DNA from: Escherichia coli
Lineage (GTDB): Bacteria > Pseudomonadota > Gammaproteobacteria > Enterobacterales > Enterobacteriaceae
Strand: one strand, 5' to 3'
DNA length: 64,000 nt
Assembly (NCBI RefSeq): GCF_003018255.1
Contig: NZ_CP027440.1
Shown: one piece after another, positions 321 to 64,000 of the stretch
How positions within the stretch are numbered: the first letter of the stretch is position 1
How the letters are laid out: each line of letters begins with the position of its first letter
Notes under the pieces: model-generated
The model's input: the letters and a program-made list of their open reading frames with translations, nothing else
Database searches by the model: none
Told to the model about the DNA's origin: nothing
Made by a program: the position numbers and the translations under genes

Positions 321-382
321 TGGCGCGATAACGTAGAAAGGCTTCCCGAAGGAAGCCTTTTTCAACAGATTAACCGTTTCGC

Positions 383-3155: not shown

Positions 3156-3199
3156 TTTGATGTTGCCGGATGGAAACATCCGGCAACCCTTGACGCGGT

Positions 3200-3574
<375 letters not shown>

Positions 3575-3598
3575 CTAAACGTAACACATAACGCCAAT

Positions 3599-4933
3599 TC
3601 ATTCCTTGAAATCGTTTGCATCCAGCTCGTGTCGGGAAAGCAGTTTATAAAATTCTGTCCGGTTGCGCCCCGCCATTCTCGCCGCGTGGGTGACGTTGCC
3701 TTTGGTGATTTGCAGCAGCTTACGCAAATAGTTGAGTTCAAAATGATTACGTGCCTCAACAAAGGTTGGCAGCGCCGTGTTTTCGCCCTCCAGCGCCTGC
3801 TCTACTAATGCATCGCTAATCACCGGAGATGAGGTCAGCGCCACGCACTGTTCAATCACGTTGACCAACTGGCGTACATTACCCGGCCAGCTAGCGGTCA
3901 TCAGGCGTTTCATCGCATCGGTGGAGAACGCGCGGACAAACGGTTTATGTCGCTCTGCCGCCTGGCGCAACAGGTGATTTGCCAGTAGCGGAATGTCTTC
4001 TGTGCGCTCTGCCAGAGCCGGAATTTTCAGGCTGACAACGTTGAGGCGGTAATAGAGATCTTCACGGAATTCCCCGCGCGCCATCGCTTTTGGCAGGTCG
4101 CGGTGAGTGGCGGAAATAATCCGCACGTCGATATCAATATCGCGGTTACTGCCCAGCGGGCGCACTTTACGCTCCTGCAACACACGCAGCAGTTTGACCT
4201 GCAACGGTGCAGGCATATCGCCAATCTCATCGAGAAATAGCGTACCGCCTTCCGCCGCCTGGAATAAACCTTCGCGATTGCTGACAGCGCCAGTAAACGC
4301 GCCACGCGCATGACCAAACAGCTCCGACTCCAGCAATTGCTCGGGCAATGCACCACAGTTAATAGCAATAAATGGTTTGCTATTGCGCGGGCTGGCGTTG
4401 TGGATAGCCTGGGCGAAAATCTCTTTCCCGGTGCCGCTCTGACCGTTAATCAAAACGCTAACGTCTGATTGCGCCACCAGCCGCGCCTGTTCCAGCAAAC
4501 GCAGCATCAGCGGGCTGCGGGTGACAATCGCCTCGCGCCAGCGTTCATCGGTGGCTGGCGCGGATTGTTCCAGCGCATCGTCAATTGCCTGATATAGCGC
4601 GTCTTTATCGACAGGCTTGGTGAGGAAACTGAACACTCCCTGCTGTGTTGCAGCAACGGCATCGGGAATAGAACCATGTGCGGTAAGAATAATTACCGGC
4701 ATTCCCGGCTGCACTTTCTGGATTTCAGCAAACAGCTGCATACCATCCATTTCATCCATCCGCAGGTCGCTGATAACTAAATCTACTTTTTCGCGATTCA
4801 GTACCCGTAATCCTTCAGCACCACTTTCCGCCGTGACCACGCTGTAGCCTTCGCTGGTCAGGCGCAGGCCAAGCAGTTTCAGCAATCCCGGATCGTCATC
4901 GACCAGTAATAAATGCGCAGGTTTATGGCTCAT
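3599..4933 (-). CDS. glrR: Sigma54-dependent response regulator (NtrC family)
   Basis: Receiver domain, AAA+ sigma54-activator motifs (GESGTGKE, GAFTGA) and C-terminal HTH; trimmed to the internal ATG giving 444 aa. Confidence 0.9.
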
Positions 4934-5636
4934 CAGGAGTGACCTCATCAGTGGATGGCGCGGGCTTTTCACTCTCGTGCGGCGTATCCGGCGAGAAATT
5001 TCCAGCCGGTTTGCGGGTCGAGAGCTGGCGTTCAATATCGGTCAGGTTTTCCAGCTTGCGGGTAGTGAGTTCCAGTTGCTGTTGTAGAACGTGATGTTGC
5101 TGGCGCAAAGTATCCAGCTCGCTGTCGCTGGACTGCTGGAGTTTACTGTAGCGTTGGCGCTCTTCCGCCAGTTGCAGTTGCAGCGCCTGACCGTCGCGCC
5201 AGAGTTGATACAGAGGGCGAACCTGTGCCGGGATCTCGGTACTTAGCGCATCAATGCGCGCGACCAGCTGGCGGCGCTCATACGGCGTAATTTTGGCGTC
5301 GGCGAGCAAAATCCCTTGTTTAAAGGTATTTTGCCAGTTGCCGTCGTCATATTGGCGGGCTTGCTGACGCGACTGCGCAGGCATTAAACGATCAGCACAA
5401 TCCATCGCCCGCAGCCAGTAAAGCGGATTGGTTTCGGTTGATTTACCTTGCAGCGCCCAGATGTCGCTACATTCAGTAGAAAGATAGTCAGCCAGTTGAT
5501 AAACCGGAATTTTTTCTTCTGCTGGCGTATCAATGGCTGGCTTATTGTGACTCTGCACGCAACCCAGCAATGCCAGACATGGCAGCCCTGCCAGCCACAG
5601 CCGTCGGGGCAATAATCGTTGAAAAATGTGTCGCAT
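4923..5636 (-). CDS. qseG: Outer-membrane lipoprotein QseG/YfhG
   Basis: 237-aa ORF with signal peptide and lipobox (LLGC), between glrK and glrR as in K-12. Confidence 0.85.
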   Translation of the reverse strand: MRHIFQRLLPRRLWLAGLPCLALLGCVQSHNKPAIDTPAEEKIPVYQLADYLSTECSDIWALQGKSTETNPLYWLRAMDCADRLMPAQSRQQARQYDDGNWQNTFKQGILLADAKITPYERRQLVARIDALSTEIPAQVRPLYQLWRDGQALQLQLAEERQRYSKLQQSSDSELDTLRQQHHVLQQQLELTTRKLENLTDIERQLSTRKPAGNFSPDTPHESEKPAPSTDEVTPDEP

Positions 5637-30360: not shown

Positions 30361-30392
30361 TCTCAATGCCGGGTTTAAGCCCGGCATTGTTT

Positions 30393-45336: not shown

Positions 45337-45412
45337 TGGCGTCCCCTAGGGGATTCGAACCCCTGTTACCGCCGTGAAAGGGCGGTGTCCTGGGCCTCTA
45401 GACGAAGGGGAC
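45337..45412 (-). tRNA. gltW: tRNA-Glu (UUC) in the 16S-23S spacer
   Basis: 76-nt exact match to GTCCCCTTCGTCTAGAGGCCCAGGACACCGCCCTTTCACGGCGGTAACAGGGGTTCGAATCCCCTAGGGGACGCCA. Confidence 0.9.
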
Positions 45413-45497
45413 GTATCAGTCTGCTTCGCAAGACGCCTTGCTTTTCACTTTCTATCAGACAATCTGTGTGAGCACTGCAAAGTACGCTTCTTTAAGG

Positions 45498-52028: not shown

Positions 52029-52766
52029 ATGACGCGCATGAAATATCTGGTGGCAGCCGCCACACTAAGCCTGTTTTTGGCGGGTTGCTCGGGGTCAAAG
52101 GAAGAAGTACCTGATAATCCGCCAAATGAAATTTACGCGACTGCACAACAAAAGCTGCAGGACGGTAACTGGAGACAGGCAATAACGCAACTGGAAGCGT
52201 TAGATAATCGCTATCCGTTTGGTCCGTATTCGCAGCAGGTGCAGCTGGATCTCATCTACGCCTACTATAAAAACGCCGATTTGCCGTTAGCACAGGCTGC
52301 CATCGATCGTTTTATTCGCCTTAACCCGACCCATCCGAATATCGATTATGTCATGTACATGCGTGGCCTGACCAATATGGCGCTGGATGACAGTGCGCTG
52401 CAAGGGTTCTTTGGCGTTGACCGTAGCGATCGCGATCCTCAACATGCACGAGCTGCGTTTAGTGACTTTTCCAAACTGGTGCGCGGCTATCCGAACAGTC
52501 AGTACACCACCGATGCCACCAAACGTCTGGTATTCCTGAAAGATCGTCTGGCGAAATATGAATACTCCGTTGCCGAGTACTATACAGAACGTGGTGCATG
52601 GGTTGCCGTCGTTAACCGCGTAGAAGGCATGTTGCGCGACTACCCGGATACCCAGGCTACGCGTGATGCGCTGCCGCTGATGGAAAATGCATACCGTCAG
52701 ATGCAGTTGAATGCGCAAGCTGAAAAAGTAGCGAAAATCATCGCCGCAAACAGCAGCAATACATAA
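52029..52766 (+). CDS. bamD: Outer membrane protein assembly factor BamD
   Basis: 245-aa TPR lipoprotein with lipobox LAGCSG. Confidence 0.95.
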
Positions 52767-52789
52767 CAGAAACCTGAAACACAAAACGG

Positions 52790-52803
52790 CAGCCCTTGAG
52801 CTG
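52790..52803 (+). repeat. Left copy of target-site direct repeat CAGCCCTTGAGCTG flanking IS4
   Basis: Identical 14-mer at 54231-54244 directly abutting the other IS terminus. Confidence 0.7.
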
Positions 52804-54230
52804 TAATGCCGATCAGTTAAGGATCAGTTGACCGATCCAGTGGCTGTGTAAGAATCCGGAAACGCTCACTTGTTTCCGGATTTTTTTATGCACATTGGAC
52901 AGGCTCTTGATCTGGTATCCCGTTACGATTCTCTGCGTAACCCACTGACTTCTCTGGGGGATTACCTCGACCCCGAACTCATCTCTCGTTGCCTTGCCGA
53001 ATCAGGTACTGTAACGCTACGCAAGCGCCGTCTTCCCCTCGAAATGATGGTCTGGTGTATTGTTGGCATGGCGCTTGAGCGTAAAGAACCTCTTCACCAG
53101 ATTGTGAATCGCCTGGACATCATGCTGCCGGGCAATCGCCCCTTCGTTGCCCCCCAGTGCCGTTATTCAGGCCCGCCAGCGCCTGGGAAGTGAGGCTGTC
53201 CGCCGCGTGTTCACGAAAACAGCGCAGCTCTGGCATAACGCCACGCCGCATCCGCACTGGTGCGGCCTGACCCTGCTGGCCATCGATGGTGTGTTCTGGC
53301 GCACACCGGATACACCAGAGAACGATGCAGCCTTCCCCCGCCAGACACATGCCGGGAACCCGGCGCTCTACCCGCAGGTCAAAATGGTCTGCCAGATGGA
53401 ACTGACCAGCCATCTGCTGACGGCTGCAGCCTTCGGCACGATGAAGAACAGCGAAAATGAGCTTGCTGAGCAACTTATAGAACAAACCGGCGATAACACT
53501 CTGACGTTAATGGATAAAGGTTATTACTCACTGGGACTGTTAAATGCCTGGAGCCTGGCGGGAGAACACCGCCACTGGATGATACCTCTCAGAAAGGGAG
53601 CGCAATATGAAGAGATCAGAAAACTGGGTAAAGGCGATCATCTGGTGAAGCTGAAAACCAGCCCGCAGGCACGAAAAAAGTGGCCGGGACTGGGAAATGA
53701 AGTGACAGCCCGCCTGCTGACCGTGACGCGCAAAGGAAAAGTCTGCCATCTGCTGACGTCGATGACGGACGCCATGCGCTTCCCCGGAGGAGAAATGGCG
53801 GATCTGTACAGTCATCGCTGGGAAATCGAACTGGGATACAGGGAGATAAAACAGACGATGCAACTGAGCAGGCTGACGCTGAGAAGTAAAAAGCCGGAGC
53901 TTGTGGAGCAAGAGCTGTGGGGTGTCTTACTGGCTTATAATCTGGTGAGATATCAGATGATTAAAATGGCGGAACATCTGAAAGGTTACTGGCCGAATCA
54001 ACTGAGTTTCTCAGAATCATGCGGAATGGTGATGAGAATGCTGATGACATTGCAGGGCGCTTCACCGGGACGTATACCGGAGCTGATGCGCGATCTTGCA
54101 AGTATGGGACAACTTGTGAAATTACCGACAAGAAGGGAAAGGGCCTTCCCGAGAGTGGTAAAGGAGAGGCCCTGGAAATACCCCACAGCCCCGAAAAAGA
54201 GCCAGTCAGTTGCTTAACTGATCGGCATTA
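52804..54230 (+). mobile_element. IS4-family insertion sequence (IS4-like, 1427 bp) with 18-bp perfect terminal inverted repeats
   Basis: IRL TAATGCCGATCAGTTAAG at 52804-52821 equals the reverse complement of IRR at 54213-54230; single internal DDE transposase gene of about 442 codons; flanking 14-bp direct repeat; size fits IS4 (about 1426 bp). Confidence 0.85.
52888..54217 (+). pseudogene. insG: IS4 transposase, reading frame split by +1 frameshift in a C6 run (53150-53155)
   Basis: ORF 52888..53193 (MHIGQALDLVSRYDSL...) and ORF 53147..54217 overlap in different frames; joined they give about 442 aa with the IS4-family YREIK motif ([13 protein letters not shown]). Confidence 0.75.
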
Positions 54231-54244
54231 CAGCCCTTGAGCTG
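54231..54244 (+). repeat. Right copy of target-site direct repeat CAGCCCTTGAGCTG flanking IS4
   Basis: Identical to 52790-52803. Confidence 0.7.
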
Positions 54245-54423
54245 CCGTTTTTTTATTCTGTTAGTTGTGAAACTGAAGCGATTTAGTCACTATCGATCTC
54301 ATCAAATATGGCTCGCTTTGAGATATTCCTCAAGTAAAAAAACACCTCTTCCTGCGATTTCTCACAAAAAAGATTCGTTGACAAAAAGTGACAAAATTAT
54401 GAGATTTCCATCACACATTTTGA

Positions 54424-54819
<396 letters not shown>

Positions 54820-54866: not shown

Positions 54867-54922
54867 GTTGACAGCGTGAAAACAGTACGGGTACTGTACT
54901 AAAGTCACTTAAGGAAACAAAC

Positions 54923-54970
54923 ATGAAACACACACCGTTTTTCTTCGCATTCTTTTTTACCTTCCCCTGA
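54923..54970 (+). CDS. pheL: pheA leader peptide (15 aa, 7 Phe codons)
   Basis: Translates to [15 protein letters not shown]; immediately followed by the attenuator. Confidence 0.8.
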   Translation: [15 protein letters not shown]

Positions 54971-55016
54971 ATGGGAGGCGTTTCGTCGTGTGAAACAGAA
55001 TGCGAAGACGAACAAT

Positions 55017-55046
55017 AAGGCCTCCCAAATCGGGGGGCCTTTTTTA
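55017..55046 (+). terminator. pheA attenuator terminator
   Basis: AAGGCCTCCC-AAAT-CGGGGGGCCTT hairpin followed by a T-run, 20 bp upstream of the pheA ATG. Confidence 0.7.
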
Positions 55047-55068
55047 TTGATAACAAAAAGGCAACACT

Positions 55069-63588: not shown

Positions 63589-63646
63589 TTACTGATTTCT
63601 GGAGAAAATGCAATCAGCAGTTAATAACTCTGTCGCATAAGGTCAT

Positions 63647-64000
63647 TTAGCGACCAGGAAATCCCGGCGGCATCATACCCTTCATGCTTCTCATCATCTT
63701 CGCCATTCCGCCCTTCTTCATTTTCTTCATCATGCGCTGCATGTCGTCGAACTGTTTCAGAAGACGGTTAACGTCCTGCACCTGCATACCGCAACCGGCA
63801 GCGATACGGCGTTTACGCGAACCTTTGATGATTTCTGGCTTAGCGCGCTCTTTCATCGTCATCGAGTTGATGATGGCTTCCATACGCACCAGCACTTTAT
63901 CGTCCATCTGCGACTTGACGTTATCCGGGATCTGCCCCATGCCCGGCAGTTTGCCCATCAGGCTGGCCATGCCGCCCATATTTTTCATCTGGCGCAGTTG
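63647..64000 (-). CDS. ffh: Signal recognition particle protein Ffh, 3' part (5' end outside window)
   Basis: Met-rich M-domain C-terminus (…MMKKMKKGGMAKMMRSMKGMMPPGFPGR); frame stays open to the window edge. Confidence 0.9.
   Translation of the reverse strand, partial: QLRQMKNMGGMASLMGKLPGMGQIPDNVKSQMDDKVLVRMEAIINSMTMKERAKPEIIKGSRKRRIAAGCGMQVQDVNRLLKQFDDMQRMMKKMKKGGMAKMMRSMKGMMPPGFPGR

Follow-up and report, generated by a model that had tools for sequence, protein, structure and literature searches.

A frameshifted IS4 copy within the terminator hairpin behind bamD in Escherichia coli

What occupies the spacer between bamD and raiA in this Escherichia coli chromosome, and is it a mobile element that arrived there recently in a single strain? 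The window (the whole 64,000-nucleotide stretch of DNA analysed here) is collinear with positions 2,683,737–2,746,784 of the K-12 chromosome, and a sequence-only reading had singled out an insertion sequence in this spacer as the only DNA outside the conserved core gene order. The alignment bears this out: no other large insertion sets the window apart from K-12. There are also smaller differences. K-12 has about 126–152 bp extra at three intergenic places (window 359–373, 30365–30388, and 63632–63647), none of which is present in the window, and the first two of these extras contain REP/BIME-like sequences (GCCTGATGCGCTACGCTTATCAGGCCTAC ... GCCGGATAAGGCGTTCACGCCGCATCCGGC). The rRNA operon of the window, which corresponds to rrnG, has about 20 bp at 45412–45433 where K-12 has about 106 bp; this difference adjoins the tRNA-Glu gene in the 16S-23S spacer and is of the ordinary kind seen among rrn spacers.

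The element is 1427 bp long and lies between the two copies of a direct repeat, while canonical IS4 is 1426 bp long. Compared with the MG1655 feature "insertion sequence:IS4" (NC_000913.3, 4502090–4503515), 1421 of 1427 aligned positions are identical (99.6%), and the six that differ comprise one extra C, substitutions at 53707, 53799, and 53865, and a CT>TC dinucleotide change at 54222–54223. Copies identical to this one are named "IS4-like element IS4 family transposase" in RefSeq. The larger reading frame scores 252 bits against NCBIfam NF033592 (transpos_IS4_1; cut-off 115) and matches positions 3–200 of the 200 in Pfam DDE_Tnp_1 (PF01609; E 6.3e-32). It also contains the Y(2)R(3)E(6)K motif of the IS4 family (motif as defined in PMC2266710), as Y307, R310, E314, and K321 in InsG numbering. 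The end signature of the IS4 subgroup, -AATR--------WTW---- (PMC2266710, Table 1), fits the terminal repeat TAATGCCGATCAGTTAAG, positions 2–5 of which are AATG and positions 14–16 TTA. Judged by its sequence, the element is thus IS4, an isoform of the K-12-type copy, as had been proposed. The proposal that K-12 keeps its single IS4 elsewhere also proves correct, the K-12 bamD-raiA spacer being empty. More generally, IS4 is present in 2,685 of 5,426 complete E. coli genomes (megablast), at 5,489 places, and many of these copies match the window at 100% across all 1427 bp.

The 18-bp inverted repeats and the exact 14-bp direct repeat are located by sequence where they had been reported (Table 1). 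No further TAATGCCGATCAGTTAAG site occurs in the 64-kb window beyond the two ends when three mismatches are allowed, and no further CAGCCCTTGAGCTG site when one is allowed. For these terminal-repeat and direct-repeat motifs, shuffled sequences give 0.05 matches on average, and two matches occur in 0 of 100 shuffles.

Table 1. Features of the occupied bamD-raiA spacer, in window coordinates
Feature	Position	Strand	Basis or remark
bamD, upstream neighbour, coding sequence intact	52029–52766	+	245-aa ORF; annotated bamD in identical RefSeq loci
Left half of split bamD intrinsic terminator (AAAACGG and first duplication copy)	52783–52803	+	Folding
Target-site duplication, left copy, CAGCCCTTGAGCTG, 14 bp	52790–52803		Once only in empty-site genomes
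IS4 element	52804–54230	+	6 differences from K-12 IS4; 100% identical same-site copies in other E. coli
Left terminal inverted repeat (IRL), TAATGCCGATCAGTTAAG	52804–52821	+	Identical to K-12 IRL
Promoter-like site TTGACC-16-AAGAAT, possible transposase promoter	52828–52855	+	Consensus scan, weak
IS4-internal hairpin and T-run	52850–52887	+	Inverted repeat; ends just before transposase ATG
Truncated transposase frame	52888–53193	+	89 aa identical to InsG, then 12 out-of-frame aa, stop
Downstream frame, DDE catalytic domain and YREK motif	53147–54217	+	Pfam, NCBIfam; detached from start codon
C6 run with extra C	53150–53155	+	K-12 has C5 (alignment); frameshift point
Right terminal inverted repeat (IRR), exact reverse complement of TAATGCCGATCAGTTAAG	54213–54230	-	Alignment, end survey
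Target-site duplication, right copy, CAGCCCTTGAGCTG	54231–54244		Exact repeat of left copy
Right half of split bamD terminator (second duplication copy and CCGTTTTTTT)	54231–54254	+	Folding
raiA, downstream neighbour, coding sequence intact	54478–54819	+	113-aa ORF; annotated raiA in identical loci

The element divides the intrinsic terminator of bamD. The uninterrupted site, AAAACGGCAGC-CCTTGA-GCTGCCGTTTTTTT, lies 17 nt past the bamD stop codon and was read directly in K-12, O157:H7, and ATCC 25922, a comparison of the locus that the sequence-only reading had suggested; the spacer is uninterrupted in all three. The rebuilt empty site has the fold expected of a classic intrinsic terminator (-18 kcal/mol, z -4.3). 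The left junction by itself is no more stable than shuffled sequences (z 0.07). At the right junction a weak hairpin re-forms from the IS4 terminal CGGCA and the flanking UGCCG before the U-run (-11.8 kcal/mol), and this hairpin (54205–54254) is not significant against shuffles (z -0.97).

The hairpin inside IS4 that precedes the transposase start is more stable, at -23.5 kcal/mol (z -4.9), and an equally stable fold appears in 0 of 200 shuffles. Transcripts of bamD are probably now terminated at this predicted structure, which, from its folding, may also shield the transposase gene from read-through. A promoter/terminator pattern scan does not include the hairpin among its predictions, and promoter-like sites in the region are no more numerous than in shuffles. 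On the plus strand at the right end of the IS, the pattern scan gives no sign of outward transcription into raiA. That gene retains 233 bp of native upstream DNA, from which its promoter region is probably untouched. The Phe leader at 54922–55047 is the only Rfam match in the neighbourhood.

Duplications of 11–13 bp are usually cited for IS4, and the sequence-only reading had suspected that the palindromic target could make the 14-bp repeat look longer than it is. The two alignment blocks of the window overlap by exactly 14 bp on K-12 (2736907–2736920), so 14 bases are truly duplicated. The repeat is therefore a real duplication, as claimed; the suspected lengthening need not be invoked, since comparison with the K-12 copy settles where the IS ends and the duplication is not continued by the bases beside the repeats. 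Nor are the repeats native to the spacer: the 14-mer is present in a single copy in 5,009 empty sites, and none of these has native 18-bp inverted repeats or a second 14-mer.

To place this length in context, we surveyed IS4 copies at other places and rebuilt their targets, which gave seven distinct genomic sites and eight target alleles. The duplication ranges from 11 to 14 bp over this set. It is 11 bp in the terminal hairpin of IS200 (three copies); 12 bp at K-12 yjgZ-nanX, at metK-galP, and on plasmid pNE1127-2; 13 bp in the B2 allele of the bamD terminator; and 14 bp both in the common allele of that terminator and at ygcG-eno (two strains). At every surveyed site except that of K-12, the duplicated bases form the tip of a GC-rich hairpin, and the cuts fall 3–4 nt inside an A-run on the left and 3–5 nt inside a T-run on the right. 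The bamD target, AAAA-CGG[14 bp]CCG-TTTTTTT, has exactly 20 nt between the runs, and five other sites share this A-run/hairpin/T-run architecture with 18–20 nt between runs. Mayaux et al. are said to have arrived in 1984 at the rule AAA-N20-TTT for IS4 targets, with which the 20-nt spacing at bamD agrees. We searched the literature for a published target consensus of IS4 and for accounts of the element at bamD-raiA, with no specific result.

A 14-bp duplication is thus one base past the published range yet normal for IS4 with a 14-nt hairpin tip. That the two bamD alleles give 14 and 13 bp suggests that the cuts are positioned from the hairpin arms. The hairpin-tip rule is approximate, since cutting is asymmetric at the metK-galP and K-12 targets. 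The locus provides a tidy natural example of the preference of IS4 for terminator hairpins, with a duplication length that appears to follow target geometry.

Two of the other surveyed sites merit description in their own right. In three genomes, the terminal hairpin of IS200 (AAAACCCC[CAGCTAGGCTG]GGGGTT) holds an IS4 in its tip, flanked by the 11-bp duplication, and the hairpin of another IS thus serves as an IS4 target. The ygcG-eno site is a second recurrent IS4 site, with the 14-bp duplication CAGCCCGAAGGCTG in both strains. The IS4 alleles there differ, being K-12-type T/G/G in one case and the common A/C/T in the other at positions 903/995/1061, which suggests either independent hits or gene conversion.

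The insertion behind bamD had been thought probably strain-specific and useful by its presence as a lineage marker. We determined occupancy in the 5,426 complete E. coli genomes. The site is empty in 5,009; a bamD-IS4 junction in the orientation of the window is present in 336; and about 40 carry IS4 at that position in the opposite orientation, with an identical 14-bp duplication in the one examined, NCTC86. About 376 of the 5,426 are therefore occupied, in both orientations and on two target alleles. Within the 336, a perfect right end with the 14-bp duplication is found in 80, of which 77 also have the extra C, and an E2348/69-type deleted copy is found in 11. Subtracting these (336 - 80 - 11) leaves about 245 genomes with intact copies and canonical ends (e.g., AH50 and SWHEFF_69). 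A direct count with a 42-nt K-12-type right-junction query was unusable because 29 of its 42 bases are common to all IS4 and many other targets begin CAG(CC).

Neither expectation survives these counts. Far from being confined to one strain, even the extra-C allele is found in 77 genomes, and occupancy as such is homoplastic; a PCR size marker across bamD-raiA would lump unrelated lineages. The combination of the extra C with the perfect IRR, by contrast, marks a clade of roughly 77–80 of the 5,426 complete genomes, many of them from poultry. Many of the carriers listed are avian isolates (e.g., APEC O78:H4).

The occupied sites in NZ_CP027452.1 (C6W71_RS16885) and NZ_CP029164.1 (DDV95_RS11080) have the same site, orientation, duplication, and frameshift, and are identical over the element and 1000 bp of each flank, with no difference detected. 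The copies in AH50 and SWHEFF_69 (same orientation) and in NCTC86 (opposite) share the insertion point and the 14-bp duplication but have C5, intact genes of 442/448 aa, and canonical 16/18 ends. The E2348/69 copy shares the insertion point in the bamD terminator and differs in length, duplication, and end tips. Both it and the copy in Z1323PEC0014 are internally deleted to 1089 bp and diverged by more than 20 substitutions; in the E2348/69 locus (NZ_CP059840.2) IS4 occupies 1441–2529, as it does in a second locus (L011). These deleted elements are flanked by a 13-bp duplication (CAGCCTTGAGCTG), each repeat of which lacks one C of the 14-mer. The B2 strain ATCC 25922, whose site is empty, natively has CAGCCTTGAGCTG, with a loop one C shorter, so the E2348/69-type copy is a separate insertion into a different target allele.

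In the E2348/69 copy the two end tips have changed places with respect to the interior, with ...CCAGTCAG at the left and ...CCGATCAG at the right. This arrangement suggests that the interior flipped through recombination inside the repeats, in their inner 8 bp, which would be expected to swap the tips. In one genome examined, GmM077 (NZ_CM183654.1, ~3160–3900), an IS200C lies immediately after the T-run of the bamD terminator. In Shigella sonnei lineage 2, an inversion of ~45 kb is flanked by IS4-family transposases, and its gene list runs from raiA to bamE/IS4, according to a 2026 paper (PMC12795559). This suggests that IS4 upstream of raiA is also found in Shigella, where it may have driven a rearrangement, and hints at the same site.

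Because both orientations occur, and because 13-bp and 14-bp duplications lie on different target alleles, there would have been at least two independent insertions and probably three or more. An in-place flip by recombination between the 18-bp ends could change orientation and, from the swapped tips of E2348/69, may have happened once. The window-type copies and the intact copies of the same orientation (AH50 and SWHEFF_69) could represent one insertion or two, as these copies differ from one another at only 1–6 positions. The substitutions at K-12 positions 903, 995, and 1061 were considered as a sign of common descent at the bamD site and discarded; they are the common IS4 allele, with K-12 as the outlier.

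A different account would derive all occupied sites from a single ancient insertion, followed by inversion, mutation of both duplication copies, and recombination, with no hot spot. It would accommodate the exact coincidence of all occupied sites at one position, the right flanks of three same-orientation carriers, which are identical over 1000 bp, and the swapped tips of E2348/69, which an in-place interior flip would give. However, it requires two parallel deletions to turn both duplication copies into the native B2 allele. It also has to contend with an E2348/69-type IS diverged by more than 20 substitutions when the other copies have 6 or fewer, with empty sites in 5,009 genomes across the species, and with the use of similar hairpins elsewhere, including ygcG-eno in two strains with different IS4 alleles. 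We regard a single insertion as very improbable. Recurrent insertion at bamD remains the preferred reading, although its full form, in which the bamD terminator is a recurrent IS4 hot spot, duplication length is set by the hairpin arms rather than by a fixed stagger, and the ends of the E2348/69 and window copies record recombination or conversion, seems to us evenly poised between right and wrong.

The transposase gene of the window copy is broken. Translation from the InsG start ATG at 52888 yields 101 aa without a catalytic domain; all DDE and YREK residues are encoded downstream of the break, and positions 3–66 of NCBIfam transpos_IS4_1 match the truncated upstream frame. With one C deleted in silico, the frame again encodes 442 aa, and G304A and R326L are the only differences from InsG. 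Thus, where one DDE-transposase gene had been reported, there are two out-of-frame pieces owing to the extra C. The identical copies in NZ_CP027452.1 and NZ_CP029164.1 carry the PGAP note "frameshifted," and the feature is an IS4 pseudogene that is already annotated in RefSeq genomes. It should be named as such, not as an active IS.

The extra-C allele was counted with a 42-nt query in which every 28-mer seed spans the C6 run. It is present in the 77 genomes at one chromosomal place each, which indicates that the extra C is real and inherited rather than a read error, and for 23 of the 25 best identical records that place is the only IS4 place. The allele shows no sign of spread by transposition. 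From its sequence, the window copy would be an immobile fossil, which in principle could be mobilised in trans by an intact IS4 in the same cell because its ends are perfect. Rescue by programmed frameshifting was set aside: it would require a +1 shift, for which a C6 run is not known to be a slippery site, canonical IS4 is built around one ORF (PMC2266710), and each of the 77 carriers has the allele in one copy.

These findings bear on an alternative view of the element, namely an intact, active IS4 recently inserted in one strain only. Its perfect 18-bp ends, its exact and undecayed 14-bp duplication, and its mere six differences from K-12 IS4 would all suit such an origin. The break in the frame, which leaves a product lacking the DDE domain, the occurrence of the identical element and flanks (0 differences over 1000 bp on each side) in other strains, and the 77 carriers of the frameshift allele all speak against it. 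They refute this view unless the extra C is an error found in the window only, which is very unlikely given 77 independent assemblies; we consider the view highly improbable. Least credible of all is that the transposase is truly intact and the extra C a sequencing or assembly error, since, although the change falls in a C-run and single-base homopolymer errors are the commonest in long reads, the C6 allele recurs, each time at one chromosomal place, in 77 complete genomes that were assembled independently, co-occurs with a private IRR change (80 genomes), and contrasts with intact C5 copies at the bamD site in other strains, so that annotation pipelines distinguish both.

The private change in the right end is what makes the terminal repeats perfect. 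All seven canonical IS4 copies surveyed have 16/18 ends, with ...CCGATCAG at the left and ...CCAGTCAG at the right, and the K-12 IRR likewise gives 16/18. Owing to the CT>TC change, both ends of the window copy carry the dinucleotide typical of the left. A double change at adjacent positions in the IRR is most simply, and probably, a copy of the left end. Recombination with an E2348/69-type or NCTC86-type chromosome was also considered as its source and rejected, as the crossover would be confined to ~20 bp; moreover, the window has none of the other E2348-type variants at 1199–1311.

We have high confidence in an overall account in which IS4 entered the apex of the bamD terminator hairpin, later suffered a frameshift, and was inherited by a clade. 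In outline, the target of IS4 transposition would have been the hairpin apex of the rho-independent terminator behind bamD, with staggered transposase cuts at CGG^CAGC and GCTG^CCG, and gap repair would then have duplicated the 14-bp hairpin tip. IS4 prefers targets of this kind, in which an A-run and a T-run enclose a short GC-rich hairpin, and such a preference would explain why the bamD site has been struck several times in E. coli. The copy in the lineage of the window would later have gained one C in its C5 run, leaving the transposase its first 89 native residues and none of the catalytic ones, and would then have passed by vertical inheritance to a clade of about 77 sequenced genomes. 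The CT>TC change would have rendered the right end identical to the left, from which it was probably copied.

One of the nearest known systems is the K-12 IS4 (insG, b4278), with which the window copy shares the left end, the internal hairpin, the gene layout, and a flanking direct target duplication. The two differ in length (1426 bp in K-12, with the extra C and the frameshift in the window copy), in their terminal repeats (16/18 versus 18/18), and in their duplications (12 bp at another chromosomal site versus 14 bp). Relative to K-12 InsG, the window copy also has G304A and R326L, the commoner allele among the copies surveyed. At the level of the IS4 subgroup (De Palmenaer, Siguier and Mahillon 2008, PMC2266710), the likeness extends to a DDE and YREK transposase, a size within 1400–1650 bp, the end signature, a duplication of about one helical turn, and strong target-arm specificity. 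The subgroup is tabulated with duplications of 10–13 bp, one base fewer at most than in the window, and with a single uninterrupted ORF, which the window copy has lost. Neither departure indicates another element: the ORF is interrupted because this copy has decayed, and the duplication falls outside 10–13 bp because the published range is too narrow.
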